Of a stretch of DNA of 64,000 nucleotides, positions 954-64,000 are shown one piece after another. Both the position numbers and the translations under genes were made by a program. Numbering within the stretch: position 1 is the stretch's first letter; each line of letters starts with the position of its first letter. The DNA comes from a virus. The notes beneath the pieces were generated by a model. The model did no database searches. It was not told where the DNA came from and was given only the letters and a program-made list of their open reading frames with translations. The DNA lies in the IMG/VR virus record IMGVR_UViG_3300045988_183533; one strand, 5' to 3'.

Positions 954-1751
954 TTACAGCAAACTCATCTCTGCACGATATGCATCGGCATCGTAGCCCC
1001 AGATATTACAAGCAAAATCGATTGCTGCGTTACCTTCGCTGGGATAACCGTCGTCAACAAAATCTCCTTTGCAAAGCGCATACCAACCACAATTACTTCC
1101 GATATCCTCATCCGCATATTCTACACGAATATTGGCGTGTGGAAATTTACGGCTCAGTTCGACAATGGCGCATGTAGGCGTATTCCAAGGAGTCTTAAAG
1201 TTAACAGTGATTTCCGTATCATTTGTTCTACGGATACTCACATCGAAGACATCCCACTTTACGCCCCAATTTGCGACACGCCAATAATACCACGAGGCAT
1301 ATCCATAGCTTACGGCGTTTTCCAATGTACGTTCCGCCACAGCGTCGAACTCCTCGATATTATAGGGGATACGTTTCAGGTTGATGAGTTTGCTATCTTT
1401 CACATGTTCCAGTTTGGAGCGAGCTTCCGCAGCTTCCTTGCAAACACCAACCATATCTGATGCAGTAAGTTTTTCCTTCCTGTGCAGGAGAAAAGTTTCT
1501 CTGCAAATAGCCTTTCTTACGTTTTCCGGATACTTCTCCGGGTCAATTCCGTATTTATTTACGGCCGCCCATGCGAGCATCCTGTCACATGGCGATACGA
1601 TTTGCAGTGATTCCGGCATAGGAACAACAGACTGAAGCGAAAAATCTTTTTCGCCATCATCGTCTTTTCCCTTGACACGATTCAGAAAATCCTCCAACTC
1701 TGCCTGAGAATTGAAAGAAACAAACATGATATTCATGATATTGTTTGCCAT
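954..1751 (-). CDS. Conserved hypothetical protein (265 aa) with W-rich motif (YGYASWYYWRVANWGVKWDV); possibly DUF1281/Api92-like
   Basis: Long ORF with ATG start; family assignment is from motif recall only. Confidence 0.55.
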   Translation of the reverse strand: MANNIMNIMFVSFNSQAELEDFLNRVKGKDDDGEKDFSLQSVVPMPESLQIVSPCDRMLAWAAVNKYGIDPEKYPENVRKAICRETFLLHRKEKLTASDMVGVCKEAAEARSKLEHVKDSKLINLKRIPYNIEEFDAVAERTLENAVSYGYASWYYWRVANWGVKWDVFDVSIRRTNDTEITVNFKTPWNTPTCAIVELSRKFPHANIRVEYADEDIGSNCGWYALCKGDFVDDGYPSEGNAAIDFACNIWGYDADAYRAEMSLL

Positions 1752-1768
1752 TTATTTTCTCCTTTGTC

Positions 1769-1957
1769 TTACGCGGGTACGCGTACGCAAGAATAGTGGC
1801 AAGCTCCACAATTCAGGAACTTTGCCCGCTTCATCGCCTCATCCAAGCTGAACCGCGTCGCTTCGTTAATGTTGGCAGTATCACTCTTACACTCTACGTA
1901 AAAACGCACATCTCCAAAAAACGGGTCTTTACGGCTTAGCGCATACATATTTTCCAA
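1769..1957 (-). CDS. Small Cys-containing protein (62 aa; CGACHYSC)
   Basis: TTG start at 1957 with AGGAGG RBS (1965-1970). This is the intact copy of a duplicated cassette. Confidence 0.45.
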   Translation of the reverse strand: MENMYALSRKDPFFGDVRFYVECKSDTANINEATRFSLDEAMKRAKFLNCGACHYSCVRVPA

Positions 1958-1984
1958 AATAAGTCCTCCTCAAATATACTTCTC

Positions 1985-2065
1985 TCAGAACTTCTCGAAT
2001 TCCTCGCTCGGCATCTGTGCTTCCGCTTCATCCAGCAGTCTTTTGTAGGAATCGCTGGAAACATT
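1985..2065 (-). pseudogene. 3' fragment (about 27 codons, ...VSSDSYKRLLDEAEAQMPSEEFEKF*) of a paralog of the 2554..3294 gene
   Basis: About 85% nucleotide identity to 2556-2640. It has no start codon and is preceded by in-frame stops. Confidence 0.5.
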
Positions 2066-2094
2066 TCCTTTCCTTATTAGGGTATTTATTTTCG

Positions 2095-2436
2095 TCAAAT
2101 GATAACGGCTTCCAATGCTACAGCACCAGACCCAATTTCATCAGCAACTTTTGATGCTGTTGCAAAATCGTGGTGAGCATATGGCCCTTGCGAATCCATA
2201 TAAGTGACTCGGTAGGCATAATCTGGCTCAAATGATGGGCTTACAATAATGTAAATACCAGTATTTAACTGATATGTGATGGCATCAGCTTTTTCGATTT
2301 GAGCGATGATTTCCTTTCGACGCTTAGCTTCCGACTGCAAGTATTCAGATGCTGCCTCTTTAATAGGGTCACAAAGGAAAATATCGTCTGGATTACCCGT
2401 AATCGGGGGTAGGTCACCCGGATAATAGGATATCAT
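2095..2436 (-). CDS. Hypothetical protein (113 aa), inserted between the two cassette copies
   Basis: ATG 2436 with GGAG RBS; sits exactly between the duplicated segments. Confidence 0.55.
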   Translation of the reverse strand: MISYYPGDLPPITGNPDDIFLCDPIKEAASEYLQSEAKRRKEIIAQIEKADAITYQLNTGIYIIVSPSFEPDYAYRVTYMDSQGPYAHHDFATASKVADEIGSGAVALEAVII

Positions 2437-2505
2437 GCTTTCATCTCCTTCTTTTTGTCTTCAGCGATGACTTTTTGGAACACGTTAATGTTGGTAGTAT
2501 CGCTC

Positions 2506-2541
2506 TTACGCTTTACGGCTCAACACATACATATTTTCCAA
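2506..2541 (-). pseudogene. Truncated second copy of the small Cys ORF (MENMYVLSRKA*), cut short by an approximately 36-nt deletion
   Basis: Same AGGAGG-TTG start context as 1957 and identical first 5 codons. The deletion relative to the 1769..1957 copy creates a stop. Confidence 0.4.
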
Positions 2542-2553
2542 AATAAGTCCTCC

Positions 2554-3294
2554 TCAAATGTACCTCTCCCAGAACTTTTCGAATTCCTCGCTTGGCATCT
2601 GTGCTTCCGTTTCATCCAACAGTCTTTCGTAAGAATCACTGGAAACATCGGTGCCAATAAAATCGGCAACGGCATCATGACCGCGCTGCATCAAGGCGTC
2701 TTTCAGAATCGCCCAACGACATTCGTGAATGGCATCATCCAGCGTTTTGTTGCCAGCAGGCTGCCAATACTCGTCTGTCTGCTGAATTCGATAAAACTCA
2801 TCCAGCGCATCATCAACATTGTTTTCGCTAAGAATATCGTCAATAAAATTGACAGGATAATCCTTGCCGTTGATTTCCACTTCTGCATAACTGAAACAGT
2901 CGTCATCACACGGCATTGCTGCACAGGTGACATCGAAAATTTCGTGCGTTTCCTTGTTTACCTTGCAAGGCAACTGGAACGTTGCTCCTGACTCGAAGTA
3001 AGAAAAGACGACCGCTTCCTCAACATCGTTGTCGGGGCATTTCGCAGACTGGATGAATTCCGGCATAGACAGCACATCAATACTCTCTCTTCGGTCGCCC
3101 ATGGCAGGATAAACCTTCATGATTGTATAACCATCATGCTGCAGCTTTCGGATAGCACGGCACAGGTCGAGATGCATTTCATGAAGACTGATGTCACTGC
3201 CTCGCCCGTCTTTTTTGGTATAGATTTCGACAACTACATCTTCAGAGGTGGTCTGAACAACATAATAGGTCTTATCATTACAAATCTTAAACAT
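2554..3294 (-). CDS. Hypothetical acidic protein (about 246 aa)
   Basis: ATG at 3294 with GGGAG RBS is preferred over the track TTG at 3315. Its C-terminus is duplicated as the fragment at 1985-2065. Confidence 0.6.
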   Translation of the reverse strand: MFKICNDKTYYVVQTTSEDVVVEIYTKKDGRGSDISLHEMHLDLCRAIRKLQHDGYTIMKVYPAMGDRRESIDVLSMPEFIQSAKCPDNDVEEAVVFSYFESGATFQLPCKVNKETHEIFDVTCAAMPCDDDCFSYAEVEINGKDYPVNFIDDILSENNVDDALDEFYRIQQTDEYWQPAGNKTLDDAIHECRWAILKDALMQRGHDAVADFIGTDVSSDSYERLLDETEAQMPSEEFEKFWERYI

Positions 3295-3315
3295 AGCACT
3301 TATCTCCCTTCTCAA

Positions 3316-3513
3316 TCAAACAAAAGCCAGAAAATCGTTGGCCGGAATCTGTCGCTGAGCATCGTAAGCGGTGCCGTAGACATCATCACCCCAACTGATT
3401 TGCACATCCTTCGTCCACAGAGCAAGCTCGGACATTTTTGCTGCCACGGCTTTTGCGGAGCTGCAGATATACTTCTTGACGGCGTTGTTTTCTTTTACGT
3501 TAATTGTAAACAT
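3316..3513 (-). CDS. Small hypothetical protein (65 aa)
   Basis: ATG 3513 with perfect AGGAGG RBS. The track's N-terminal extension would run through a terminator hairpin, so it is rejected. Confidence 0.5.
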   Translation of the reverse strand: MFTINVKENNAVKKYICSSAKAVAAKMSELALWTKDVQISWGDDVYGTAYDAQRQIPANDFLAFV

Positions 3514-3533
3514 TTCAATTTCCTCCTTAACAC

Positions 3534-3567
3534 AACAAAAAAACAGCCATCTCGATTGAGATGGCTG
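3534..3567 (-). terminator. Rho-independent terminator (10-bp stem CAGCCATCTC/GAGATGGCTG, T7 run)
   Basis: Hairpin plus T-run on the minus strand, lying between A-promoter copy b and the RBS of the 3316..3513 gene. Confidence 0.6.
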
Positions 3568-3629
3568 CACGAACAGATTTTGAACTAAAACAAGTCAAGG
3601 AATTGATACTTTGATTTATCTTAGTTTCT

Positions 3630-3660
3630 TAATTATATCTACTTTGCAGCAATTGACAAG
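3630..3660 (-). promoter_or_regulatory. A-type promoter-like element, copy b (TTGTCA-N16-TATAAT)
   Basis: -35 at 3654-3659, -10 at 3632-3637. Confidence 0.5.
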
Positions 3661-3689
3661 ATAGCCACAACAGGAATGCAACATCGTAT

Positions 3690-3911
3690 TCACGGTACTT
3701 TTTCAACGACATCTTCACCGTAAACCACGAACAGACCAGAGCCGTTATCCCAGCGAACCATGATACTGCCGGTATCGTCTATACCTGAAACTGTGCCGAG
3801 TGTTCCAATAGGCGGAGCCTGAATATCATCCATTTTCAGCAGTTTCACGCGTGTTCCGGCTGGATATTCGGCACGGAGCGCAGCAACGATTTCTCGATTT
3901 GGAAAAATCAT
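3690..3911 (-). CDS. DUF4314 family protein (73 aa)
   Basis: PGTRVKL...MDD..AP.P.GT.GTV..IDD.G.I.V.WDNG.S pattern typical of DUF4314, a family common on Firmicutes mobile elements. GAGGTG RBS. Confidence 0.6.
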   Translation of the reverse strand: MIFPNREIVAALRAEYPAGTRVKLLKMDDIQAPPIGTLGTVSGIDDTGSIMVRWDNGSGLFVVYGEDVVEKVP

Positions 3912-3927
3912 AAATACACCTCGCCTC

Positions 3928-4476
3928 TTAGTATGTCACGGTGTCAAAGAACTCCTGACATTCCTCATCGTTCAACACAACACCAAAGTAGGCAACACGC
4001 TCGACGGTGGTTTCCCACACCTTAACGGTACGCGTCATAGGCTGAACGACCCACGAATGCTGTCGCCAAAGGCCATCTTCACTCAGGGCATATCCGGTCG
4101 CAATCTGACATCTGCCACGATTTGCATCCCACAGATAAGCAGCGTTCTGATGGCAACGACAATCTTCGCCCTTCTTCATGTACCTGGAGTTATAAAAAAA
4201 CTGTCCTCGTTCCAGCACTTTCTCCGCATCTTCGTCACGAGTATTGAGCAAAACCTCATCGCCACCGAAAGTTAAAATTCTGTCACGCAGAGCACGCAAA
4301 GTCTTTTTCATTTCGTTTGTGAGCCAAGGCGCGGTGGCGTCCTCGTTGTACAGCTGCATTGCCTCTACTCGTTTTTTCCATTCCTTATCCATTGGATTCC
4401 AGCGGACAGGGTTCGCAACCATATCAGGAGAGGTCATGGGCGTTTTGGCATTCCAACTAAATTTCTTATTTGCCAT
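3928..4476 (-). CDS. Hypothetical protein (about 182 aa)
   Basis: ATG 4476 with AAAGGAG RBS is preferred over the track start at 4497. Confidence 0.55.
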   Translation of the reverse strand: MANKKFSWNAKTPMTSPDMVANPVRWNPMDKEWKKRVEAMQLYNEDATAPWLTNEMKKTLRALRDRILTFGGDEVLLNTRDEDAEKVLERGQFFYNSRYMKKGEDCRCHQNAAYLWDANRGRCQIATGYALSEDGLWRQHSWVVQPMTRTVKVWETTVERVAYFGVVLNDEECQEFFDTVTY

Positions 4477-4490
4477 TATAATACTCCTTT

Positions 4491-4532
4491 TCAACAAAAC
4501 CGCTTACCTTTTTCAGGTAAGCGGTTATATTT
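4491..4532. terminator. Bidirectional hairpin terminator (CCGCTTACC/GGTAAGCGG with flanking T/A runs)
   Basis: 9-bp stem with T-rich runs on both sides. Confidence 0.5.
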
Positions 4533-4535
4533 TGA

Positions 4536-5189
4536 TTATGCGAGCATGGGATATATTTCTTTCTTTACCGCCCTCATAAGAGCGGCAGCATGTGCAGCGT
4601 TTTGTGCATTGCCAACACCTGCGCGAGATATTTTTGGATTCACACGCTCAATGAAATTTTTCTTATACGGGGCAGAAATGCTCCTTGCAGCATCGATAAT
4701 CTGTTTCATGTTTTCAGCGTCGATTTTTTGCTGAACGCATAATTCTTGTAACCGTGTGCAAAAAGCGTCTTTGTTGTCCCGTACAGAAGTAGAATGATTT
4801 TTTGTTTCTTTATGTGGGATGACTGCCTCACAGGCTATCCGTTTAACGCTTAACCATTTACTGCACATGGTCTGAATAAGCCCGTCATATCCCTTGTCTG
4901 CCGACACGATGATATAATTACTTTTCTTTCCTGTTGTGCAAAGACTACCAAGTTTAGCAACAACGTGGAAATCCATGCTGTTTTTCCCTGCATTGGAGAC
5001 GCAGAACTCTACTTGGTTGACTGGGTACTTTGCCAGAAAAACCTGCAATTCTTTAAGTGACATGTATGTGGCTTCCGGACCGATGAAGATAATCAGCTTG
5101 TCCTTTTTGGTTTTAAAATGCACTACATTTAGCCATTTCTTTTGGACATTCTCGGTATCTATCAGCCAAATGGTTCGAGTGCAGCTCAC
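4536..5189 (-). CDS. NYN-domain (LabA/PIN-like) putative nuclease
   Basis: IWLIDTENV ... NYIIVSADKGYDGLI motifs resemble the NYN D-x-E-N and SxD acidic clusters. Start is uncertain: GTG at about 5189 after GGGGGTGA. Confidence 0.5.
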   Translation of the reverse strand: MSCTRTIWLIDTENVQKKWLNVVHFKTKKDKLIIFIGPEATYMSLKELQVFLAKYPVNQVEFCVSNAGKNSMDFHVVAKLGSLCTTGKKSNYIIVSADKGYDGLIQTMCSKWLSVKRIACEAVIPHKETKNHSTSVRDNKDAFCTRLQELCVQQKIDAENMKQIIDAARSISAPYKKNFIERVNPKISRAGVGNAQNAAHAAALMRAVKKEIYPMLA

Positions 5190-5194
5190 ACATT

Positions 5195-5491
5195 TCACCC
5201 CCACACTTCGGTGACTTTTCTGGGGATTCCGTGCTTGTCGATACACTGCCGGTAAATTGTAAACTTACTGTTCGGGTGCGCCTTCATATAGTCAGCGCGT
5301 GCCGCGTCCGTGTTCGCAATCAGCAGATTTTTATCAGCAATAAGAACGCTTTCCCATCCGGAATCGAGAAGCGTACTGGCAACATCCTTGAAAGATACGT
5401 CTGCAGGCGTGTCGCACTTACAAACCCCTCGTGCGATAGGATGCGCAGTGGCAATGATTTTTGCTGCCGTTATCACAGTCTCGTAACTCAT
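5195..5491 (-). CDS. Hypothetical protein (98 aa)
   Basis: ORF-track ORF in an operon with neighbouring genes. Confidence 0.5.
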   Translation of the reverse strand: MSYETVITAAKIIATAHPIARGVCKCDTPADVSFKDVASTLLDSGWESVLIADKNLLIANTDAARADYMKAHPNSKFTIYRQCIDKHGIPRKVTEVWG

Positions 5492-5503
5492 AGTGTCCTC
5501 CTA

Positions 5504-5761
5504 TCACGCCACCTCGAAATACTTTTCGACATCGCTGTTGATAGAACGCGCAGGAACACCCTTGGTCTTCTCACTGTAGTAGCCACGCTTTTTCAGCGTG
5601 TTCTTAACAATAGAAATGCTCTTGTCGCTGCGCATGGTACGCTTTCTCTTTTCGATGCGTGCAGAACGAATGCGCTTTTCGTACTTCTGCATACGAACAG
5701 CGTCCATAATGATAGGAGCAGTAGTCTCCGCGACATACTCGTTAAAAGTTTTCATATTCAC
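5504..5761 (-). CDS. Small basic hypothetical protein (85 aa)
   Basis: ATG 5761 with GGAGGA RBS. Confidence 0.5.
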   Translation of the reverse strand: MNMKTFNEYVAETTAPIIMDAVRMQKYEKRIRSARIEKRKRTMRSDKSISIVKNTLKKRGYYSEKTKGVPARSINSDVEKYFEVA

Positions 5762-5785
5762 ATATCCTCCGTAATATATTATTTT

Positions 5786-5830
5786 TCTAAATAAAAAAGG
5801 CAGCTATTTTCTCAAAAATAGCTGCCTTTA
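5786..5830 (-). terminator. Rho-independent terminator (14-bp stem AAGGCAGCTATTTT, T-run)
   Basis: Strong hairpin plus TTTTTTATTT on the minus strand, downstream of A-promoter copy c. Confidence 0.65.
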
Positions 5831-5915
5831 GTACATTGTGATTGGCGATAATTCAATCATACACGCCCATAAAACTCTGGTACGATGCATTGTGTGATTT
5901 TATTTATCGGATAAC

Positions 5916-5947
5916 TATATATTATTAACTTTGCAGCAATTTGCAAG
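5916..5947 (-). promoter_or_regulatory. A-type promoter-like element, copy c (TTGCAA-N16-TAATAT)
   Basis: -35 at 5941-5946, -10 at 5919-5924. Confidence 0.5.
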
Positions 5948-6002
5948 TACAGGATACAATAAAAAGCGCCTCCCATATTACGGGGAAGCGCCTTAGTGTT
6001 AT

Positions 6003-6602
6003 TTATTCTTTGTTGTCCGAAGAAATTTTCGGAGACTTCTTCTTCTCAACGAAAGCATCAATCGTTCGGCCGAAACGATTAAGAAGCATTGCGCCAAGAT
6101 AAAGAATGATGCCGCTAATCATGATACCAACATCAAGCGTCTCAAATCCTGCAAAACTCTTGCAATAAATAGAACTAACTGCGAGAGCGCCAAGCGTTGG
6201 CAGCGAAGCAATCGTTACCGTAAGTGCCGCATACACAACACTATTCAGAACAGTACCAATACTTGCAATGATGCCGCGCTTTTTAAAAGTGCGCTGCTTA
6301 TCGTAGGACATCTGATAAGCCCCGATAAGACTTGGTTCACGAATAATGTCGCGCAGATGCAGCAGACACCACGCCAAAACAGCACACCCGATGCCGCAGC
6401 CGACCTTATAGGCGCTCATGCGAGAACCCAACAGGTCATTTGCGTTGACGGGAACGATGAACGCCAGAATGTTGAACAGGACGGCAAACAAGACGAACAT
6501 TGCCATGTGGGGATTCTTGGCAGTGTTGCGAGCCTCGTTCTTTGCCTTACTTGCGACTTCCTCGGTCTGATTGTGAATTTTCACATTGAGAATCTTTTCC
6601 AT
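6003..6602 (-). CDS. Integral membrane protein (199 aa, 4-5 TM)
   Basis: Hydrophobic segments with ATG start. Confidence 0.55.
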   Translation of the reverse strand: MEKILNVKIHNQTEEVASKAKNEARNTAKNPHMAMFVLFAVLFNILAFIVPVNANDLLGSRMSAYKVGCGIGCAVLAWCLLHLRDIIREPSLIGAYQMSYDKQRTFKKRGIIASIGTVLNSVVYAALTVTIASLPTLGALAVSSIYCKSFAGFETLDVGIMISGIILYLGAMLLNRFGRTIDAFVEKKKSPKISSDNKE

Positions 6603-6649
6603 TTTTTACCTTTCCTTTCGTGCGAACGATTTAGTTATAAATCGTTTTT

Positions 6650-6961
6650 TTAGTCGTGATAGCGGTGCGAAATACCGTATATGATTGCGAGCGCTAATGC
6701 AATGTAGATATAAAGATATCCCTTCTCAATCATGTTCAGAATCGCAATAGTTAAGTACGAAAAAGCACCGCAAGAAGAAGCGGCACTCATTTTGCCGAAA
6801 AAGAACATCACCATCTGGGAAGCGATTGCTGCAGGAATGGTAATCTGGAAGCACCAAGCCTCAATGATTCCGTTCCAGTCGAGAGCGGCGATGAAGCTGA
6901 CTCCCATGGCAAAAGTCCATAAAAACGCGGCAACGAGAACGATACTGTCAAACACATTCAT
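6650..6961 (-). CDS. Small membrane protein (about 103 aa, 3 TM)
   Basis: ATG 6961 with GGAGG RBS is preferred over the track start at 6976. Confidence 0.55.
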   Translation of the reverse strand: MNVFDSIVLVAAFLWTFAMGVSFIAALDWNGIIEAWCFQITIPAAIASQMVMFFFGKMSAASSCGAFSYLTIAILNMIEKGYLYIYIALALAIIYGISHRYHD

Positions 6962-7011
6962 AGTAAATACCTCCATAATTTAAAGAGTTGTAAACATCGG
7001 ACATCTATATA

Positions 7012-7053
7012 AACAGCAAAAAGCCGCCGATGGAACAATCCATTGGCGGCTCA
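7012..7053 (-). terminator. Rho-independent terminator (12-bp stem AGCCGCCGATGG)
   Basis: Hairpin plus TTTTTGCTGTTT on the minus strand. Confidence 0.6.
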
Positions 7054-7102
7054 GTTGCCGATTGCAATAATACAGTTAAATCATTTGATTTATGTTATGT
7101 TT

Positions 7103-7133
7103 CAATTATATTAACTTCGCAGCATAATGCAAG
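7103..7133 (-). promoter_or_regulatory. A-type promoter-like element, copy d (TTGCAT-N16-TATAAT)
   Basis: -35 at 7127-7132, -10 at 7105-7110. It directly abuts the sortase stop codon. Confidence 0.5.
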
Positions 7134-7139
7134 TGTTTT

Positions 7140-8111
7140 TTAAAAAACCTGGTCAAGCTTTGCGCATACGATAAAACGAGTATCGTAATTATCACTGCCG
7201 GAACAGGTAGACAAAATCAAAACCTTATCATTCAATCCAACTTCTGTGGCGTACTGATTGTAAGAATAAGCTTTCATACTTGCAATCTCTGTCAGGAAAT
7301 ACGAATCGTCCGGATTCGCAATGGTATAACTTGGGTCAATAGGATAATCGGCAACAGCAAAGATTTTCCATCGTGTCTGCTGTTCACCCAAGGTAAGATA
7401 AATATACCGATGTTCCTTTGCAAAGTTGACATCGCGAAAGTATTTCAAAACACTGAATTTCTTGTGCATACTATTTCCGTTGCTATGTCCAAAAATAACA
7501 GTTACTCTGTACATATCGTCAACATTGCTGACATTCCATTCGGAAGGAACAAAATAAGCGCCCCAGATACTTTCCCTATCGAACTCATTGTGAGTCAGGT
7601 AATAATCATCGTCTGTGGGATGCTGCAAAATGGGCTCATCTGTAACATCAACGCCGGGAACGGTTAAGTAACCAATGGTGTTTTTGGAATACGCTGGCTT
7701 TGGTGTCGGTTCCGGTTCTGAATCACTCTCACTTGAATTAGAAGACGGGATAAGAATCGAGGGAGTAGAGACGGGTTCTTCTACATCGTCGGAGATGTTT
7801 CCTGTCTCATATGCAGGGATATGATAGTAATCATACGCCTTCCATCCAATATAGCCAATCATGGCAATAAGAACGATGCAAATTACGACCAACAAAACTG
7901 TCCAGATGGAAAATCGCCGTTTCTCTTTGTCCTCTGACGCGTCCATCGCATCCATCGATTCATTGTCATCCTCGTCATGACTTGCCTTTTGATGAGGGAA
8001 GTTTTCACCAGTTCCATCATCCTCATCATTTGGAATGTAATTGTACGCACCAAGTTCCTGCTCGAAATGTTCTTCTTCAGGCAGTGGTGGAATAATAGGT
8101 GTTTTTGCCAT
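7140..8111 (-). CDS. srtB: Sortase-family transpeptidase, class B-like (323 aa; N-terminal acidic tail, one TM, catalytic domain)
   Basis: Catalytic motifs VIFGHS (His), LILSTCS (TLxTC Cys) and downstream TRF (Arg). Start has an AAGGTGA RBS. Confidence 0.75.
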   Translation of the reverse strand: MAKTPIIPPLPEEEHFEQELGAYNYIPNDEDDGTGENFPHQKASHDEDDNESMDAMDASEDKEKRRFSIWTVLLVVICIVLIAMIGYIGWKAYDYYHIPAYETGNISDDVEEPVSTPSILIPSSNSSESDSEPEPTPKPAYSKNTIGYLTVPGVDVTDEPILQHPTDDDYYLTHNEFDRESIWGAYFVPSEWNVSNVDDMYRVTVIFGHSNGNSMHKKFSVLKYFRDVNFAKEHRYIYLTLGEQQTRWKIFAVADYPIDPSYTIANPDDSYFLTEIASMKAYSYNQYATEVGLNDKVLILSTCSGSDNYDTRFIVCAKLDQVF

Positions 8112-8122
8112 AATACATCACC

Positions 8123-9286
8123 TTATTCAGCTGCGGCAGACCGCTCGTACACATCAATGCAGTAGTTGCCCATAATCTTGTTGTACATGCACTCCTGTGC
8201 CAAAGGACCTGCCCCATAGGTATCAACGGCGTTATCGTAGTTACTACCAATATAAGCTTTCACTTCATCGACAGACGGTTTATAGTCCTGTTCCTCTGCC
8301 AGATACTGCGCAACAAGGCTCAGTAAAACATTTTCTTCCGTCTGACTACGAAGACTTTCTGAATACTCCTCCGAGGTCTTATAATTGCTGTATGTCTGAA
8401 CGAATGTCTCCAAGTCCATATTGTAGGCAGTTGCTTCGTTTTCGACATACTTCAAGTTGGTTTCAAGACTCAGGTTGACAAGGTCTGTCGTATCCTTTTT
8501 GAGTTTTACATTGTCAATGAAATACTGTTCAATCTCATTCTGAATCTTATTCATCCGAAGATTCTCTTCAACATATTCACGAAGCAGAGCTACTGTGGTT
8601 ACAGCAGTGCCGTCTTGCAGCTTGTAGCCACTCATGATACCGGCAACATCAGCATCTGTCATGCTATATTGAGAAATTTTATTAAGCGTTACATGGAAAA
8701 CAGCTTCCTTGTTGGCGAGTTCGATAGTCTGCTCGCCTGTAGTTCTATCTGTTGTACTGCTATATCCATCAGGGAATGTTACCGTAACATCAAACGAATC
8801 CCCCGTGTTATGCCCGACGATTTGCTCTTCAAATCCGTCAATAAAGGTATTGGAACCGAGTTCCAAATCGTAGTCTTCTGTTGTTCCACCGGTAAAAGCA
8901 ACACCATCAACCGTACCCTCATAGTCAATGTTCACAACATCGCCTTCCTGTGCGGCGCGGTCTGTTACCTCTGTCGTCAGCTTGTAATTGGACTGAAAAT
9001 AATCCAACTCGCTTTGAATCTCCTCGTCTGTAACGGCGTATACATCTTTGCTGACCGTATACTTCTTATAATCCTTGGGCATCTTTATGTATTTGGACGC
9101 AGTCACATCACGAAAATACCCGTCATCATCAAGACCGAGGTCATACTCAACAGCGGAAGCTGTTTCGGAGGTGGCTGTTTCCGCAGTCTCAGATGCACTT
9201 GTATCGGCCGTATCTTTACTGCACGCAGTCAATGCAATACACGCAGCACTGATGACCGCCAGAATCATTTTTGCGTTTTTCTTCAT
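8123..9286 (-). CDS. Lipoprotein with trigger-factor-like FKBP PPIase domain and TF C-terminal-like domain (extracytoplasmic foldase candidate)
   Basis: Start MKKNAKM at 9286 with AAAGGAGA RBS. Signal peptide plus lipobox LTAC. GDVVNIDYEGTVDGVAFTGG...LELGSNTFIDGFEEQIVGHNTGDSFDVTVTFPDGY closely resembles the trigger factor PPIase region. The track's N-terminal extension is rejected. Confidence 0.65.
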   Translation of the reverse strand: MKKNAKMILAVISAACIALTACSKDTADTSASETAETATSETASAVEYDLGLDDDGYFRDVTASKYIKMPKDYKKYTVSKDVYAVTDEEIQSELDYFQSNYKLTTEVTDRAAQEGDVVNIDYEGTVDGVAFTGGTTEDYDLELGSNTFIDGFEEQIVGHNTGDSFDVTVTFPDGYSSTTDRTTGEQTIELANKEAVFHVTLNKISQYSMTDADVAGIMSGYKLQDGTAVTTVALLREYVEENLRMNKIQNEIEQYFIDNVKLKKDTTDLVNLSLETNLKYVENEATAYNMDLETFVQTYSNYKTSEEYSESLRSQTEENVLLSLVAQYLAEEQDYKPSVDEVKAYIGSNYDNAVDTYGAGPLAQECMYNKIMGNYCIDVYERSAAAE

Positions 9287-9300
9287 GAAAATCTCCTTTA

Positions 9301-9338
9301 TAAAAATACCCCGGCAGACAGGTTGCCTACCGGGGCAG
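9301..9338 (-). terminator. Rho-independent terminator (12-bp stem with two G-U pairs, TATTTTTAT)
   Basis: Lies after the SecE-like stop at 9343. Confidence 0.55.
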
Positions 9339-9342
9339 TATT

Positions 9343-9594
9343 TTAAACGAACAGGAACGGAACGTGAAGCAACAGAGCGTATGCCGCATCCATAATGCCA
9401 ATAATAACGGCGGATACAGCACTCACAACAAGAACTGCTCCGGTTCGATGGAGCGTGTTGTGCATACTCGGCCAAGTCACATTTTTGGGTGCAACCAAAT
9501 TGTGCAGCTTCTTAGGCGTGCTCTTGACGAAAGAAGGAATTGCCTTCACGAAATTCGCAATAGCCGTTCCTACCTTTTTCAGTTTATATTTCAT
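9343..9594 (-). CDS. secE: SecE-like small translocon subunit (83 aa)
   Basis: Start MKYKLKK with AGGAGG RBS; ATGA overlap with the upstream gene. KNVTWPS...TGAVLVVSAVSAVIIGIMDAAY matches the SecE C-terminal TM signature. Confidence 0.6.
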   Translation of the reverse strand: MKYKLKKVGTAIANFVKAIPSFVKSTPKKLHNLVAPKNVTWPSMHNTLHRTGAVLVVSAVSAVIIGIMDAAYALLLHVPFLFV

Positions 9595-9845
9595 GCCGCG
9601 CCTCCTACTCCGGTTACTACGAACATGATGATTGCGATAACAAGCAGAATAGCTGTACATACAGCAACCAGTTTATTTGCGGACGTTTTCGTGCTGTCTT
9701 TAGCACTCGAGCGCATTGTATCACTGATTCCGGTGATAACACTAAGACTGTTCTTGTCAGCCTTATCCATGGAAAGCGTAACCGCACAAACCAGAACAGA
9801 AACCAGCAGAATCAAGATGCACAGAATGATTTCATAAATTGCCAT
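9591..9845 (-). CDS. SecG-like small membrane protein (84 aa, TM-loop-TM)
   Basis: GGGAGGG RBS. Topology and the ...TAILLVIAIIMFVV TM2 resemble SecG/Asp5. Confidence 0.45.
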   Translation of the reverse strand: MAIYEIILCILILLVSVLVCAVTLSMDKADKNSLSVITGISDTMRSSAKDSTKTSANKLVAVCTAILLVIAIIMFVVTGVGGAA

Positions 9846-9860
9846 TGTGTTGCCCTCCCG

Positions 9861-11201
9861 TCAATTCAAGAAACCCTTGTGATGGCGAACCACCAAATGG
9901 CTGTTAAGAGAATCGATAACTTCAAGCGTAACACCTGTGACAATCAACAGACTGGTACCGCCAAAGTGCATGTTCAGACCTGTAACCGCAGTTGCCAAGA
10001 TAGGCACACATGCAATAACCGAAAGAACAAATGCTCCCGAACCGGCGAGAGAATGGCAAGCATTGCGCAGATAATCACTGGTAGCTTTGCCTGCTCGAAT
10101 ACCGGGGATACTGCCGCCGTTCTTACGCAGGTTGTTTGCCATTTCGATGGGGTCAAATGTGATGTCGATGTAGAATAAGTTGAATGCAAAAATCAGGGCT
10201 ACATACGCAACATCATAAATCCAATTCCGCGAATTCCAAGATGCCAGCGCCATATACAGGCTGGGGTGCTTGTTGTAATCGAGGAACATCGTCACGAGAG
10301 ACGGCATACTGCAAATGGTGGACGAGAAAATAATCGGCATAACACCCGACATAATCAGTTTGATGGGGATATAACTGGACTGACCAGTAGATGCTTTGTT
10401 TCCTACATTTTTACCGGCATACTGAACAGGAACGCGGCGCTCTGCATCGCTTGCGAAAACGACATAGAAGGTGGCCGCCAAAACAAAGAGGATGACGCCG
10501 GGAATCATCAGATAATACCACCATCCATTTTCTTTGCCCATTGCAATAGAGTTCTGGAACAACGAGATGACGGCATCCCATCTGGAAATGATACCGGTAA
10601 AGATGATAAGGGAAATACCGTTGCCAATACCTTTTTCGTCAATCAGCCATCCAAGCCAGATGACGATTTGAGAACCAGCAGTCAGAATGGCAATAACAGT
10701 AATGGCTTCCACGACCTGCGAAATGCCGGAAGTGTATTTCATCGCACCGTAGTTCTTCATAATAAAGAAGTACCCGATAGCTGTTACAGCCGCCAAACCA
10801 CAGCCAACATACTGCGTGATTTTATTGATTTGCTTCTGCCCGCCGATGTCCTTGCTGATTTCTTCCAGTTTCGGAATCGCAACAGTCAAAAGCTGGATAA
10901 TGATGCTTGCGTTGATGTATGCAGATACGCCAATCGCAAATACCGCACACTGAGAAAGTGCGCCACCGGAAACCAGATTGTAATAATCCAGTACAGAGGT
11001 GCTTCCGAACATAGTCTGAAGCGCAGCGGTGTTTACGAACGGAATCGTAATACCGCAACCCAGACGATAAATCAGAAGACAAAGGATGGTGAAGAGAATC
11101 TTGTTGCGAACATCATCCACCATCAGCTTCTGAAAGATGGTGCTGTTCGAATAAGACTTTTTGAGTTTCGGCTTTTTCGCCGGATTTTTAATGTTGTCCA
11201 A
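9861..11201 (-). CDS. secY: SecY family preprotein translocase subunit (446 aa), a non-ribosomal-operon copy
   Basis: Full-length 10-TM SecY with GITIPFVNTAALQ, YINASIIIQLLT and plug/hinge regions. TTG start with GGAAGGAG RBS. No rplO/adk/map neighbours. Confidence 0.85.
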   Translation of the reverse strand: MDNIKNPAKKPKLKKSYSNSTIFQKLMVDDVRNKILFTILCLLIYRLGCGITIPFVNTAALQTMFGSTSVLDYYNLVSGGALSQCAVFAIGVSAYINASIIIQLLTVAIPKLEEISKDIGGQKQINKITQYVGCGLAAVTAIGYFFIMKNYGAMKYTSGISQVVEAITVIAILTAGSQIVIWLGWLIDEKGIGNGISLIIFTGIISRWDAVISLFQNSIAMGKENGWWYYLMIPGVILFVLAATFYVVFASDAERRVPVQYAGKNVGNKASTGQSSYIPIKLIMSGVMPIIFSSTICSMPSLVTMFLDYNKHPSLYMALASWNSRNWIYDVAYVALIFAFNLFYIDITFDPIEMANNLRKNGGSIPGIRAGKATSDYLRNACHSLAGSGAFVLSVIACVPILATAVTGLNMHFGGTSLLIVTGVTLEVIDSLNSHLVVRHHKGFLN

Positions 11202-24445: not shown

Positions 24446-24727
24446 TTAAGTTCGATGGACTTTATTTTTCATACAACAAGGAAGGCAACAGATGCCGTAT
24501 GTGTTATTGCCCCACTCGCAGTGCGCCCGACTGCAAATAACACCGCGTTGGGCTTTGACGGTTTTCTTCTCTTCTTTCTTCTTTTCGATTTCGCCTTCCC
24601 GAAGGATGGTCTTTACTTCCTTTGTTGTGATACCATACTTTCTGGCAATCTGAACGACCGTTTTTCCTCCGTTGAATTCCTCTACAGCCTGTTCATGTGT
24701 TACGCCACAACCAAATTTTCCGTACAT
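24446..24727 (-). CDS. Small protein with N-terminal HTH-like segment and C-terminal Cys cluster (93 aa)
   Basis: GAGGG RBS; GKTVVQIARKYGITTKEVKTIL; CSRAHC...CCLPCC. Confidence 0.45.
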   Translation of the reverse strand: MYGKFGCGVTHEQAVEEFNGGKTVVQIARKYGITTKEVKTILREGEIEKKKEEKKTVKAQRGVICSRAHCEWGNNTYGICCLPCCMKNKVHRT

Positions 24728-31761: not shown

Positions 31762-34700
31762 TTACTGCTTCTTTTCCTCGGTTTTATCCTCGGTCTTTTC
31801 AGCAGCTTTTTCTTCGCTATCGCCCTTCTTCTTCTTAACGATGACAAATGCGCCAACGCCAATCAGAGCAACAACAACGATAACAGGAACGATGATGTCT
31901 GCGCCAAAACCAACGCCAGTCTTGTAGTTGACTACAACAGGTGCCGGAGTGGGAGCGGGTTCATTCTTGACTACAGGAGTCGGAGTCGGTCTGCTTTCTT
32001 CCGGAGGATTCTCCAGCTTAACACTTGCTACCCGAACATCACCGTAGTTGCCTGCCTTATCGACTGTACGGGTCACAATGTAACCAGTCCAATCGGGGCT
32101 CAGCTTGAAGGTAACATAACCGTTGTCCTTATCAATGTTTGTAACATTGACAGTCTCGAACTTGGTTTCGTCGAAGGTGTAATCGCCATCAGCACTCTTG
32201 GCAATAGCAGAACCATTGACCTTGTAATACTGAATCTTAGCGACACCGGAGTTGTACTCGCCATCCAGAGCGGAGATAGCAGGAACGGAATCCTTGACCT
32301 TTACAACAGGCACGAAGTCGGGGTCTTCGGTATCATCCTTGCCACCGTTTTCGTCGGGAGTAGCAACGACATCGTTACCGTTTTCATCACCGGTCTCGTC
32401 GCCGGTTGTGAAGAGAGCGGGCTTACCATGAGCAATACGAAGCGTAGTGGCTTCGGTCTTGTCATTGGTCGTTTCGGTCTTTTCGGACTCGGCGGGAACC
32501 TTCTCATCTGTACCGGATTCGGTTTCATCCTTCTTACCGGAATCTTCCTTCTTGTCGGTATCGTCCTTCTTATCGTCGTCCTTTTCGGGAGCCTTGCCAG
32601 TCTCTTCACCAGTAATGAACACATTGATGGTGCTCTCGAACTTGACGAACTTCTCGTTCAGCAAATCGGTCTTATTGGTGGAATCAACCTTATCGGCAGC
32701 GAAAGCAGAAGCAACGACAGGAGCTTCGGTATCAACAGATGTGGTGATAGTTCCCATCTCGGTAATGGCACCGGTCTTCAGGTCAATCAGGTAATAGGTA
32801 GAAGTAACCTTCTCACTATTAGCGGAAATGACCATCTTCTCGGCCCACTCAGCATCGGTCAGGGAATCGCTGGTTCCGATTGCGTAACCCTTAGGAGCGA
32901 TAACTTCAACCTTAGAGTTGAAGTACAGGCCACTCAGGTCATCAGTCGTCTTCTTGGTAACCTCAACAGGCTTACCGGTCTTTTCGTCAGCCACAGTACC
33001 AACGATAGTTGCGGGCTCTACATCGGAAAGATGCAGACGCTGAACTTCGAGGTCTCCGGTGGTAGGCAGGTAATTGTAGTTGTCGTAAGCGCCGCCAACA
33101 TACTTGAAAGCGTCCTTCGTCAAGCCAACATTACCGAAAATACCATCGATGCTGGAAGCAACAATGAGTTCGAAGGAAGGCAACTTAACGGTTTCAGCAG
33201 TCTCGTCGAAAGCGTAACCACTGGTCTTGATTTCGGGAATCTCCGTCTTGGTGCCATACAGCTTGACGACGGGGTTCGGGTCGAGAGTAACCGTCAGGTC
33301 TTTGCGAGCGATAACGAACTGACCATCGGCTTCGTTCTTATCAGCATCAACGACCTTGATGGTTACTGCGTAATTCTGCTCGACAGCGGCATCATAATCA
33401 GAGGTAACGGTGTAGGTGTAAGTACCAGCGTTCTTGACGTTTTCAGTCTTGAACTGGCTGTCACTCTCCACGCCGTCATCGCCGCTTGCGATATCAGGAG
33501 TCAGAGTCGCCTTTGCATCAGCAGTCAAGGGAGCAGTCTGTGCATTGTCGGTGGTCTTGTCGTTCTCGAAAGGAGTATAAACAAGTGCCATTTTCAGGCC
33601 CAGAGAATCAGGCTTGACAGCTGCACCGTGCGTACCATCGCCATTGGTGGCAACAGCATTTACGGTAAAGTCGGGGTTGGTGGTGTCGCCGTAAACGATA
33701 TCCTTCGGCTCGGTGACAGTGACTTCGACCAGACGCTCGCCAATGGTGTAGACGCCATTGACAATCGTAATCAGATAGTCATCGTTGTCATAAGAACCGA
33801 CCATATCGTAAGCGCCGTAGTCCTTCACGGACTCGGGCACGCTCTCCGCAACCAGAGAAGCAGCACCATCAACAGACTTCATGGAAATCTCTTCGGCAAC
33901 CGCATTCTCAACATCCTTCTTGGTGATGCTGATAATAGCTTTCAGGTCATCGCCATTCACGATAGTCTTCTTATCGGCATCGCCAGTATAGGTGAGGGTA
34001 TTGCTCAGTTCGGCCATTTCATTGCCGTAGACAGAACCAACAGTGCCGATGGTCCAAGTCAGAGGACGCTGAGTGACCGTGTAAGTGCCGTTCATGGCAG
34101 TTACCAGATAATCCTGATAAGAAGCCTGACCGACGCGGTGAGCCAGACCGGAGAAGGAAGGAACGATGTCGTAGCCTCCGACATGGCTTGCAGAAGTGAC
34201 GAGGCACAGGTTCGTGCCTTCCAGAATATCACCATTGACCAGAGCTGCCTTGGCAGTGTCGCCAGTGTATTCCAGAACGTTCACTGTGCCGTAATCAGAC
34301 CAATCTTCAACAGCAACATCGTCGCCATAGATGGAAGTCTGGGGCTTAGCAGTGATAGTGATGGGACGCTTGTTGATAACGAAATCAACAGGGGCGTAAA
34401 CAAAGGTGTAGTTGTTTGCGGCGGCATTCTCAACATTTGCAGGAACGACCTTGCCGGTACCAGCGTGAGAAGCTACCGTTGCAGGAGCACCCTCAGCGTC
34501 AGTAAAGTTGAAGGTCAGGTTCGCAACGCTCAGAACACCAGCGTCATCAGGAGTAGTGTTGCCCTTGACGGGTTTTACAACGAATCCATCGAAAATCAGG
34601 TTATCGCCGGAGAGAACAGGGTTCTCATCGCCGTAAATCTTGCTCTGAGCTGCCAGAGTGACATTCAGAGTAGCAGGAGTGATTTCGAAGGTGTTGTTTA

Positions 34701-63983: not shown

Positions 63984-64000
63984 ATTATACCACATTTATA
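63984..64000 (-). promoter_or_regulatory. Partial B-type promoter (TGTGGTATAAT extended -10; -35 lies beyond the window end)
   Basis: Identical 14-mer ATGTGGTATAATATA as in the other B-type copies. Confidence 0.45.

Follow-up and report, generated by a model that had tools for sequence, protein, structure and literature searches.

Three sites on the minus strand of a 64,000-nucleotide stretch of viral DNA (the window), here called b, c and d, are on sequence evidence copies of a lineage-specific cassette of roughly 100-160 bp. In the cassette a sigma-70-type promoter is followed by an A-rich box, then by a strong hairpin with a T-run, and then by the RBS of the next gene. The element that carries it is huge, phage-like, from the human gut and listed as viral in IMG/VR, with relatives' contigs of up to 346 kb; RBS and promoter style indicate a Firmicute host lineage. 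We tentatively favour, at slightly below even confidence, the view that the cassette is a promoter-proximal attenuator whose read-through depends on a putative element-encoded factor. If that is true, cassette-led genes would be expressed only by passing a stop signal right before them.

All units lie on the minus strand, and the same order is common to a, b, c and d and, more weakly, to f. The 21-nt promoter core has four matches in the window at three or fewer mismatches, versus 0.00 expected. The features are as follows.

896-789, minus strand: cassette a (subfamily I), a fourth complete unit, with promoter, box 1, box 2, hairpin and T-run
896-891 and 874-869, minus strand: cassette a promoter, -35 TTGCAA, spacer ATTGCTGCAAAATCGA, -10 TATACT, predicted start A 862
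857-848 and 836-828, minus strand: cassette a box 1 ATAGATAAAA and box 2 TTCAAAATC
824-795, minus strand: cassette a hairpin, ATACCGCTATCTC-GTAA-GAGGTGGCGGTAT, then T-run 794-789
760-305, minus strand: gene downstream of cassette a
3659-3537, minus strand: cassette b (subfamily II)
3659-3654 and 3637-3632, minus strand: cassette b promoter, -35 TTGTCA, spacer ATTGCTGCAAAGTAGA, -10 TATAAT, predicted start A 3625
3619-3610 and 3584-3576, minus strand: cassette b box 1 ATAAATCAAA and box 2 TTCAAAATC
3568-3543, minus strand: cassette b hairpin, 11 bp, T-run to 3537
3528-3522, minus strand: RBS AAGGAGG of the gene after cassette b, ATG at 3513
5994-5963, minus strand: ordinary terminator upstream of promoter c
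5946-5790, minus strand: cassette c
5946-5941 and 5924-5919, minus strand: cassette c promoter, -35 TTGCAA, -10 TAATAT, predicted start A 5912
5907-5898, minus strand: cassette c box 1 ATAAATAAAA
5829-5796, minus strand: cassette c hairpin, 15 bp, T-run to about 5790
5770-5766, minus strand: RBS GGAGG of the gene after cassette c, ATG at 5755
4526-4498, minus strand: hairpin between the PIN7 gene and a 182-aa gene, internal to the operon that cassette c leads
7132-7012, minus strand: cassette d
7132-7127 and 7110-7105, minus strand: cassette d promoter, -35 TTGCAT, spacer TATGCTGCGAAGTTAA, -10 TATAAT, predicted start A 7098
7093-7084, minus strand: cassette d box 1 ATAAATCAAA, within a small 5' hairpin
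About 7058-7016 (core 7053-7021), minus strand: cassette d hairpin, with T-rich tail
6974-6970, minus strand: RBS GGAGG of the gene after cassette d, ATG at 6961
About 30112-30082: ordinary terminator upstream of copy e
30079-30052, minus strand: A-type copy e, a sixth promoter copy, core only, -35 TTGCTA, spacer TTTGCTGCAAAGTAGA, -10 TACAAT
40047-39895, minus strand: A-type copy f, a fifth, weaker unit
40047-40042 and 40025-40020, minus strand: copy f promoter, -35 TTGACC, -10 TAATAT
40012-40003, minus strand: copy f box-1-like sequence ATAAATACAG
39948-39904, minus strand: copy f hairpin, weak with a long loop, then CTTTTTG
About 39885-39850: B-type promoter between copy f and a 2648-aa gene

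The hairpin of cassette a has a folding energy of -21 kcal/mol (z -4.8), and the 37 nt 5' of it are unstructured; the leader folds of b, c and d have z of -3.6 to -4.2 against dinucleotide shuffles. The fold of copy f (z only -0.84) is no better than shuffles. Copy e lacks both box 1 and a leader terminator and has an RBS directly downstream, and cassette c has no clear box 2. Taking the conserved A 7 nt 3' of the -10 as the start, the predicted leader RNAs are about 86-90 nt for b, 120-124 nt for c and 82-87 nt for d.

The original prediction was of a promoter firing into a strong terminator ahead of the next RBS at b, c and d, giving RNAs of 75-110 nt. The arrangement is borne out, at the level of sequence, as hairpins resembling intrinsic terminators, and the predicted lengths come close to that range. 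All three sites are real, but three was an undercount, with unit a and the weaker f missed. Nor are they isolated cases: one 346-kb relative carries at least 52 distinct copies of the cassette, 51 of them on one strand.

Among IMG/VR relatives we collected 71 dereplicated A-type promoters. With the same terminator finder run on both classes, 59 of these (83%) showed a leader hairpin and T-run, as did 5 of the 43 promoters of the B type (Fisher p about 2e-14, a value that overstates independence, since the copies are paralogs and homologs); the pairing is specific to the A-type class. B-type promoters in the window show the canonical order, terminator first and then promoter. The 59 A-type hairpins (median dG -19.5 kcal/mol) start 8-152 nt and end 30-174 nt after the predicted start, with a median end at +75. 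Each is G+C-rich and predicted to run immediately into a U-tract, as in an intrinsic terminator: the T-run lies 0-2 nt from the stem, and nearly every hairpin is directly trailed by 4-8 T. A search in the other direction, beginning with the hairpin motif, gave 36 unique instances, 35 of them preceded by an A-type core at a distance of 72-98 nt. Only about 15 related viral contigs carry the module. At the sequence level, its architecture, class specificity and copy number are thus established, as is the absence of a competing fold or a downstream promoter, described below.

Several sequence blocks are conserved within the cassette. The 16-nt promoter spacer holds an almost invariant palindrome, TTTGC-T-GCAAA, centred near -22. 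Box 1, A-rich (ATAAATAAAA), keeps a constant position of about +6 to +15 and is present in leaders b, c and d. It goes with the terminator and not with the promoter, being present in 53 of 59 copies with a terminator versus 4 of 12 without (p about 1e-4, which likewise overstates independence). Box 2 (TTCAAAATC) is present in most copies, single-stranded, 1-12 nt before the hairpin, and occurs at one or fewer mismatches in 54 of 97 cassette terminators versus 1 of 135 other terminators. The stem apex is conserved in sequence (CYATCTC/GAGRTGG; 41 of 97 versus 1 of 135). Box 2 and the apex are essentially exclusive to cassette terminators. The stem itself covaries, with 87.8% of cells paired versus 34-56% when the alignment is slid, and 9 of 13 pairs changed on both sides. 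The pattern is one of conserved blocks (box 1, box 2, apex) set between freely varying sequence and covarying outer stems. Leaders split into two subfamilies. This split, the palindromic spacer, the second box and the sequence-specific apex all went unremarked in the original prediction.

Box 2 is single-stranded, rich in A and U and immediately precedes a stable hairpin, a setting in which RNase Y of Firmicutes is reported to cleave. The hairpin is also close to the RBS, so the hairpins could be mainly mRNA processing or stability elements and not efficient terminators, cleavage in box 2 leaving a 5' hairpin that shields the downstream mRNA from 5' exonuclease. A stabilizer would not need the T-run that follows nearly every hairpin, however, and hairpin energies and U-tracts match those of canonical intrinsic terminators; we consider this explanation highly improbable.

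A riboswitch-type attenuator does not fit the leaders. Rfam 15, scanned over the whole window, gave nothing at gathering thresholds and, at E<=1, only sub-threshold, chance terminator-like matches, and in the leader folds we found no antiterminator pairing that overlaps the terminator 5' arm. The 28 leaders of subfamily I are A-rich and unstructured, with dG about 0 over 37-41 nt; in subfamily II a 5' helix stops 14-21 nt before the terminator, and in cassette b box 1 is the 5' strand of this 5'-terminal helix in the predicted fold. The blank Rfam result and the lack of a structure competing with the terminator rule out a riboswitch, T-box or other cis-acting attenuator of this kind, consistent with the earlier remark that no obvious riboswitch fold was present. 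We also rejected an RNA-based processive antiterminator (put, EAR, conAn2, canT), as promoter and terminators are not separated by a structured RNA of the needed size, at least about 70 nt, and a mimic of CRISPR repeats, the cassette hairpin being unlike the element's own type I-C repeat TTGCAACCCACACGGGTTGCGTTAGATTGAAAT, the one repeat compared.

Every copy is co-oriented with the next start codon, at a median distance of 34 nt. An accessory-gene operon follows with its RBS; in relatives, a cassette can instead precede the leader of a mini-CRISPR array. The downstream genes are small and mostly uncharacterized; their proteins are intact and present in 1315-9131 metagenome blocks, and are therefore presumably expressed. 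In the four strong units (a-d) the gap between terminator and RBS is about 8-40 nt, and no sigma-70-like promoter was detected in it. Since no promoter fits there, the downstream genes would need read-through, and 'short RNAs and/or attenuators needing read-through', as first proposed, is a fair description. The internal hairpin at 4526-4498 (12-bp stem, weaker U-tract, -25.6 kcal/mol, z -6.05) likewise leaves too little space for a promoter ahead of the RBS that follows. Ordinary internal hairpins are also present in operons under the other class of promoter (9337-9307), and general leakiness or a general antiterminator is therefore possible.

The leader RNAs might themselves be what the cassette is for: phage small RNAs of 70-125 nt, made from many copies, with read-through into genes secondary. 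Each would have a 5' box that is conserved, a middle that varies, single-stranded box 2 by the terminator hairpin and a U-tail. They could serve as sponges or decoys that occupy a host RNase or RNA-binding protein, or could regulate by base pairing. Chaperone-dependent small RNAs have their own promoter, a single-stranded A/U-rich site adjoining the terminator hairpin and a U-tail, all of which the cassette resembles. In 19 of 26 longer leaders the 5'-terminal helix is formed with differing partner sequences, as expected of a structured RNA, and both copy f and the cassettes before CRISPR leaders precede units with an actual or probable promoter of their own. In the giant phage 201phi2-1, termination right after a start site has been classed as giving 5'UTR-derived sRNAs (PMC11512511). 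Against this stand the co-orientation and short distance to the next start codon, the lack of another promoter for most downstream operons, the blank Rfam result and the dissimilarity to the type I-C repeat; in addition, sequences complementary to box 1 and box 2 are not enriched on the coding strand of the window's genes. We hold a small RNA family to be distinctly unlikely as the main function.

Upstream of the promoter two situations occur. Of 58 cassettes, 37 lack a separate terminator on the upstream side; a median of 14.5 nt lies between the end of the preceding ORF and the -35, and the leader terminator is the first that the upstream operon meets. In the other 21, as at promoter c, a terminator lies on each side of the promoter, and the leader terminator is therefore not merely that of the upstream operon. 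Cassettes also mark some differences between close relatives. Homology between variants L012 and L016 breaks exactly at the end of the cassette a terminator, and variant L011 has an extra gene directly after the cassette d leader; about 3 of about 7 breakpoints fall within 100 nt of a cassette and one exactly at a terminator end, in a small sample where intergenic sites would be favoured in any case. Over about 103 nt, paralogous cassettes from unrelated loci share 80-91% identity.

These observations would also suit a constitutive, portable module that gives each accessory gene block a strong promoter with no dedicated factor. Its single terminator would insulate the block from upstream transcription and permanently damp its own strong promoter, and recombination or gene conversion would keep copies similar and shuffle gene blocks. 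The promoter-early stem-loop (PeSL) cassettes of T4-type phages, strong sigma-70 promoters with stem-loop terminators before ORFans, drive such modular shuffling (PMC2839356, PMC4122927). The PeSL stem-loop precedes the start site, however, whereas that of the cassette, at +30 to +174, would cut its own output, for which a weaker promoter is a simpler route. In the 21 double-flanked cassettes the leader terminator would be redundant for insulation, and conserved blocks amid varying sequence and covarying stems suggest selection on the blocks and not wholesale homogenization. We judge this module somewhat unlikely.

In the favoured attenuator model, host RNA polymerase from the cassette promoter would halt by default at the leader terminator, as would polymerase arriving from an upstream operon, and leader RNAs of about 70-125 nt would be released. 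Downstream genes would be expressed through read-through only, controlled by an element-encoded factor that reads the conserved blocks. We infer such a factor because these cassette-exclusive blocks exceed the needs of a plain terminator; against it, concerted evolution could keep the blocks alike with no reader protein. It might load on polymerase at the promoter (palindrome and box 1), like lambdoid Q, or bind the nascent RNA (box 2 and the stem 5' arm) and block the hairpin, like antiterminators of the HutP or LicT type. Q-type loading requires a -10-like pause element. By inspection, a TAnnnT hexamer is not consistent in the initial transcribed region, which argues against such loading: TAAAAT occurs in a and c, and b, d, g and most of subfamily I have none. 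Start sites, termination and read-through are predictions throughout.

A regulator was sought with Pfam and PHROGs. No antiterminator, sigma factor, NusG paralog or RNA polymerase gene was recognized in the window, nor any of these four classes among the top 25 families listed for 138 ORFs of the 346-kb relative. No Q-family protein was seen in the window or in the top 25 families for those 138 ORFs, together less than half of the genome. The original prediction had suggested antitermination under local sigma-like or XRE regulators. The window's sole candidate of either type is a 93-aa ORF at 24446-24727 with sub-threshold matches to Mor and sigma-70 region 4 (E about 0.01); no XRE-type protein was detected in the window, and no sigma, XRE or antiterminator protein could be linked to the cassette.

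Among known systems, lambdoid PR'-qut-tR' likewise has a sigma-70 promoter with conserved DNA between -35 and -10 and, no more than about 200 nt further on, a strong intrinsic terminator that yields a short RNA (here predicted). Its promoter is constitutive, and downstream genes are expressed only once Q, near the promoter, makes polymerase resistant to terminators. PR'-qut-tR' is single-copy, whereas the cassette has about 50 copies. A -10-like sigma-dependent pause element is not consistently present in them, no Q-family protein was seen among the ORFs scanned, and the terminator contains conserved sequence that Q does not need. HutP, LicT/SacY-RAT and GlpP systems share a leader terminator between promoter and first gene, and conserved RNA sequence next to or overlapping the terminator 5' arm, where binding could prevent the hairpin. 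They serve one or a few operons, versus about 50 cassettes; the cassette has neither a RAT-like alternative hairpin nor a NAG-repeat pattern, and no homolog was found among the ORFs scanned for the element.

With HK022 put, conAn2 of pLS20 and canT of Tn916 the cassette would share terminators that insulate, so that only transcripts from the proper promoter pass (PMC8191782, PMC11658703). These antiterminators are structured RNAs, about 70 to 600 nt long, that occur once per operon (PMC8191782, PMC11658703), whereas subfamily I leaders are 37-41 nt of unstructured A-rich RNA. In the giant phage 201phi2-1, termination sites were mapped right downstream of starts and upstream of genes, and the authors suspect antitermination (PMC11512511). 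That phage infects Pseudomonas and has RNA polymerases of its own; its cases are individual ones, and a shared cassette, promoter class or conserved terminator is not reported there (PMC11512511).

PeSLs (Arbiol et al. 2010, PMC2839356; Comeau et al. 2014, PMC4122927) are alike in several ways. A large phage genome holds dozens of them; the motif, conserved, intergenic and about 100 bp long, joins a strong sigma-70-type promoter to a terminator stem-loop and sits directly upstream of small accessory or ORFan genes. PeSLs are associated with indel and replacement breakpoints between close relatives, which the cassette may share, to judge by the small sample given above. Recombination between PeSLs yields mini-circles. 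They belong to an unrelated host lineage and have no sequence similarity to the cassette. The PeSL stem-loop can precede its promoter, sit inside it or come just ahead of the start site (five subclasses) and stops incoming transcription only, whereas the cassette places its stem-loop 30-174 nt inside its own predicted transcript. The cassette also differs in its palindromic spacer, in boxes 1 and 2 and in the sequence-specific apex of its stem.

Genes in this region all lie on the minus strand, and it was read as the reverse complement. The original prediction had placed, at three sites (copies b, c and d), a promoter firing into a terminator ahead of a ribosome-binding site (RBS), and that layout is confirmed at all three. 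The shared order is a sigma-70-type promoter (TTGCAA-like -35, 16-nt spacer, TATAAT-like -10), a ATAAATCAAA-type box beginning 11-12 nt past the -10, a strong hairpin running directly into a T-run, a Shine-Dalgarno sequence and a start codon. A consensus scan independently recovered the b promoter and the b and c terminators, and in the leader folds of b, c and d the terminator hairpin dominates (z = -3.6 to -4.2). Allowing up to 3 mismatches, the 21-nt promoter core matches the window four times, where shuffled sequences give an expectation of 0.00; a looser search with direct reading gives six cores of this promoter class, here called A-type:

896-789, minus strand: copy a, a complete fourth unit with box ATAGATAAAA, a 13-bp hairpin at 824-795 and six T
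3659-3537, minus strand: copy b
5946-5790, minus strand: copy c
7132-7012, minus strand: copy d
30079-30052, minus strand: copy e, promoter core only, going straight into an RBS
40047-39895, minus strand: copy f, with a box-like sequence and a weak long-loop hairpin, followed by a promoter of the second class (B-type)

The window, together with 20 near-identical metagenome loci and the IMG/VR loci, yielded 309 A-type promoters, comprising 184 unique sequences and, after dereplication at ~90%, 71 representatives. At least 52 distinct A-type promoters lie on a single 346-kb contig, 51 of them on one strand. The consensus runs from TTGnnn through TTTGCTGCAAAGTnnn to TAnAnT. Its spacer contains an 11-bp palindrome, TTTGC-T-GCAAA, centred near -22, which is conserved far above the last three -35 bases or the middle of the -10, in part by ascertainment, because the promoter core served as the search key. 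The likely start site is an A, present 7 nt past the -10 in 87% of copies. Box 1, an A-rich leader box (ATAAATAAAA and variants), follows at about +6 to +15. A leader hairpin with a T-run is present in 59 of the 71 representatives (median dG -19.5 kcal/mol), ending at a median of +75 (range 30-174), with the next start codon a median of 34 nt further on. Of these 59, 42 have box 2, TTCAAAATC, at a distance of 1-12 nt upstream of the stem. The apical 7 bp of the stem keep their sequence (CYATCTC / GAGRTGG), whereas the outer stem covaries: pairing holds in 87.8% of alignment cells, compared with 34-56% once the partners are slid, and changes occur on both sides in 9 of 13 pairs. That the hairpins serve mainly for processing or stability is highly improbable, since it leaves the universal T-runs unexplained; such a function is possible as a secondary role.

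Leaders fall into two structural groups. In subfamily I (28 representatives, including copy a) the hairpin is preceded by an A-rich RNA stretch of 37-41 nt without structure (median dG ~0). In 19 of 26 longer leaders, copy b among them, the 5' end with box 1 pairs with the stretch that immediately precedes box 2 (median dG -10.9 kcal/mol, z -2.1), leaving box 2 single-stranded between two helices. The partner sequences of this 5' helix differ from copy to copy, and RNAalifold on the leader alignment recovers the terminator alone, missing the 5' helix because its 3' partner does not align. An antiterminator fold was sought and rejected: per-sequence folds are either unstructured or form the separate 5' helix, and nothing competes with the terminator in either subfamily. 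Rfam returned nothing at gathering thresholds, and its matches at E<=1 are chance hits on terminator hairpins. The absence of a riboswitch fold, also noted in the original prediction, thus holds, and with no competing fold and an empty Rfam search a riboswitch-type or T-box-type mechanism is excluded, as is any other known leader RNA. Inspection of the leaders found no conserved ATG or small ORF, which removes a leader peptide.

The B-type promoter (TTGAC-N13-TGTGGTATAATATA, with an extended -10) forms a second conserved family and serves as a control for the pairing of promoter and terminator. In the window its members are:

Ends near 63994, 62221, 39863, 31664, 30711, 28829, 26912, 14317 and 12796, minus strand: B-type promoters

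They drive the giant surface proteins, a flotillin-like gene, the Sec cluster and others. Their order in the window is canonical, with an upstream terminator, the promoter, a short leader and an RBS; the promoter usually sits just behind an ordinary terminator, and the leader is short and lacks one. A terminator finder flags 59 of 71 A-type but 5 of 43 dereplicated B-type promoters (Fisher p ~2e-14), and box 1 tracks the terminator, not the promoter, occurring in 53 of 59 copies with a terminator against 4 of 12 without (p ~1e-4); these p-values overstate independence because copies share ancestry, yet both the sign and the magnitude of the effects are clear. In a reverse search from the hairpin motif, the A-type core was found 72-98 nt upstream in 35 of 36 unique instances, the sole exception being a reverse-strand reading of one of the same hairpins. 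Among 232 unique strong terminators of these elements, box 2 (at most 1 mismatch) accompanies 54 of the 97 that belong to cassettes and 1 of the 135 others, and the apical motif 41 and 1, respectively. Box 2 is accordingly not the generic A-tract of bidirectional terminators. A scan with box 2 and the specific hairpin matched only within the same family of contigs. Terminators flank the promoter on both sides in 21 of the 58 cassettes with a leader terminator (at copy c, 5994-5963 and 5829-5796). The B-type control, the reverse search and these 21 cassettes rule out both chance co-occurrence and the reading that the hairpin is just the terminator of the upstream gene. What the comparisons show, at the level of sequence, is a class-specific cassette with a predicted promoter ahead of its own terminator, several conserved blocks for which a plain terminator has no need, and leaders without a cis-acting alternative fold.

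The element that carries the cassette is very common in human-gut metagenomes and almost entirely uncharacterised. Exact sequences of window proteins occur in 1315-9131 public assembly blocks, and the human-gut contigs that carry them are 200-370 kb long. The strict cassette pattern turned up in viral contigs of IMG/VR as long as 345,980 bp and in 0 of 185,579 species-representative genomes, where the loose promoter core gave chance matches only, plus one unrelated Lactobacillaceae locus. A search for annotated relatives found no plasmid match, and the weak phage matches came from the DUF4314 gene only. Most window proteins are without a family; those that can be named include:

Window: Alp7A/ParM-like actin; orphan Dam methylase; DUF4314, PIN7 and DUF1281_C proteins
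9343-11201: SecY, a SecG-like ORF (sub-threshold Pfam) and SecE
8123-9286: FKBP/trigger-factor-like lipoprotein
31762-39708: giant surface/secreted protein of 2648 aa
40130-62101: giant surface/secreted protein of 7323 aa, with ~1107-nt internal repeats bearing Big_2/MBG-type domains

The Sec proteins, the lipoprotein and the giant proteins together look like an accessory secretion system for giant adhesins. The parts of the 346-kb relative that were covered encode type I-C Cas proteins, Bro-N, Ant, DnaB_2, helicases, dCMP deaminase and tRNA nucleotidyltransferase. Neither a capsid nor a terminase gene appeared in the examined parts of the element and its relative, so we call it a huge phage-like extrachromosomal element, which may be a phage or a megaplasmid; 'tail protein' PHROG matches stem from Ig domains.

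Several features of individual loci deserve mention. A 138-nt direct repeat, 91% identical (window 1927-2064 and 2511-2648), flanks a 113-aa gene (2095-2436) that is absent from variants L011, L013 and L015, as expected from recombination between the repeats. The accessory region of single variants is interrupted by insertion sequences of IS110, Y1/IS200 (with a large partner ORF) and IS605 OrfB/TnpB types (L009 12617-13488; L010 18144-20284; L016 1-148). Relatives that encode type I-C Cas8c and Cas7 also carry several mini-CRISPR arrays, which have 2-4 repeats (TTGCAACCCACACGGGTTGCGTTAGATTGAAAT) and a conserved leader of ~190 nt:

L024, 3139-3600, plus strand: mini-array
L051, 1021-1560, plus strand: mini-array
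L056, L057, L087 (minus strand) and L080: mini-arrays

In most cases a full A-type cassette with terminator lies directly upstream of the array leader; L080 has a B-type promoter there. On the reverse strand of locus L038, from ~3453 (reverse-complement coordinates), the 3' arm of a subfamily II terminator is split after GAGATG by a solitary CRISPR repeat (TTGCAACCCGCATGGGTTGCGTTAGATTGAAAT). The cassette hairpin is not a mimic of the CRISPR repeat, as the relatives' own repeat is unlike it, and box 2 bears only a loose resemblance to the antisense of the repeat's 3' end. Fourteen Lactobacillaceae species (L104-L108, L111, L114, L122, L124, L127-L129, L131) share, on small contigs, an identical promoter, TTGCAT-TTTGCTGCAAAGTATT-TATACT then TAAATAAAAG, with a ~75-nt leader, upstream of a gene starting MNLQLLTDLYEFSMAN. 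It has the cassette's palindromic spacer, without GC hairpin or T-run, and could reflect a host factor for the palindrome or a strong promoter that has been transferred. The 28-bp promoter core and a box-1-like sequence are shared by a Lactobacillaceae locus.

The remaining 37 of the 58 cassettes with a leader terminator have no separate upstream one. In these the median distance from the end of the preceding ORF to the -35 is 14.5 nt, so that the upstream operon, too, meets no terminator before the one in the leader. No promoter-like site was found between terminator and RBS, where gaps are a few to ~40 nt. Five ORFs at 5755-3690 have one or two consecutive terminators ahead of them with promoter c alone in between, and another hairpin inside at 4526-4498. 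Their products are intact and widespread and hence presumably expressed, for which polymerase must pass the terminators. Strong hairpins with T-rich tails lie inside A- and B-class operons (4498-4526 and 9307-9337, minus strand) where no following promoter would fit; with both classes affected, some read-through of ordinary terminators seems general in the element.

By default, termination would yield leader RNAs of ~70-125 nt. Their layout is sRNA-like, and giant phage 201phi2-1 offers a precedent, with termination just past start sites classed as producing 5'UTR-derived sRNAs (PMC11512511); nevertheless every copy abuts the next RBS and complementary targets are not enriched in the window, and it is unlikely that the leader products are functional small RNAs. 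We infer instead that read-through would be under the control of an element-encoded factor, which could act in two ways. A DNA-bound factor on the spacer palindrome might engage polymerase during transcription of the A/T-rich box 1, in fixed register with the promoter, and render it terminator-resistant, much as lambdoid Q does. Alternatively, a protein might bind box 2 and the conserved 5' stem arm of the emerging transcript and block the hairpin in the manner of HutP or LicT, which would explain the sequence-conserved apex and the fixed register of box 2 with the hairpin.

The original prediction had suggested sigma-like or XRE regulators, a tie that found no support: Pfam and PHROGs place no sigma, Q, NusG or XRE family among the window proteins, nor among the top 25 families listed for the 138 ORFs of the 346-kb relative. 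The only recognisable regulator-like protein in the window is a 93-aa helix-turn-helix ORF (24446-24727, minus strand) with sub-threshold matches to Mor activator and sigma-70 region 4 (E ~0.01) and a match to the PHROG 'DNA binding protein'. Behind A-type promoters that lack a terminator lie genes for membrane proteins, for lipoproteins and for one Cys-rich protein of 171-173 aa, none of them an obvious regulator. A Q-type sigma-dependent pause was rejected, there being no consistent -10-like hexamer.

We tentatively entertain the possibility that ~50 operons and the mini-CRISPR arrays form a genome-wide antitermination regulon, each gated by the same sequence-specific leader terminator and palindromic-spacer promoter and all switched on jointly by an element-encoded protein that recognises the cassette and has no detectable similarity to Q, N, NusG paralogs or known RNA-binding antiterminators. 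If true, this would be a new kind of antitermination, in which the terminator carries the address and not only the promoter or a nut-like site. A rather doubtful alternative is that the cassette is a constitutive module akin to the PeSLs of T4-type phages, repeated promoter and stem-loop cassettes upstream of ORFans that play a part in modular shuffling (PMC2839356, PMC4122927). In its favour, homology between variants is lost precisely where the cassette-a terminator ends, some variants have an extra gene right behind cassette d, and paralogous cassettes are 80-91% identical. Yet the PeSL stem-loop precedes the start site and that of the cassette lies inside the transcript, and both the pattern of conserved blocks and the cassettes flanked by two terminators speak for an action on the transcripts that start in the cassette itself.

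The cassette is a ready marker of the element family in metagenomes and, with four short conserved blocks, a compact system for finding a new transcription-elongation or RNA-binding regulator. One cassette gating ~50 accessory operons, including likely anti-defence genes and the mini-CRISPR arrays, would offer the principal way into understanding how expression of the element's accessory genome is timed or restricted. We found no published description of it. It works partly like lambdoid PR'-tR', although it has no sigma-dependent pause element and no Q was found among the proteins scanned; put, conAn2, canT (PMC8191782, PMC11658703) and EAR differ in being longer structured RNAs, one per operon. 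It would exceed a variation on known systems only if a dedicated reader is found. In organisation it resembles the PeSLs, apart from the placement of the stem-loop, and if constitutive it would extend the PeSL idea from T4-type phages, with their Gram-negative hosts, to an unrelated huge Firmicutes element with another internal order.
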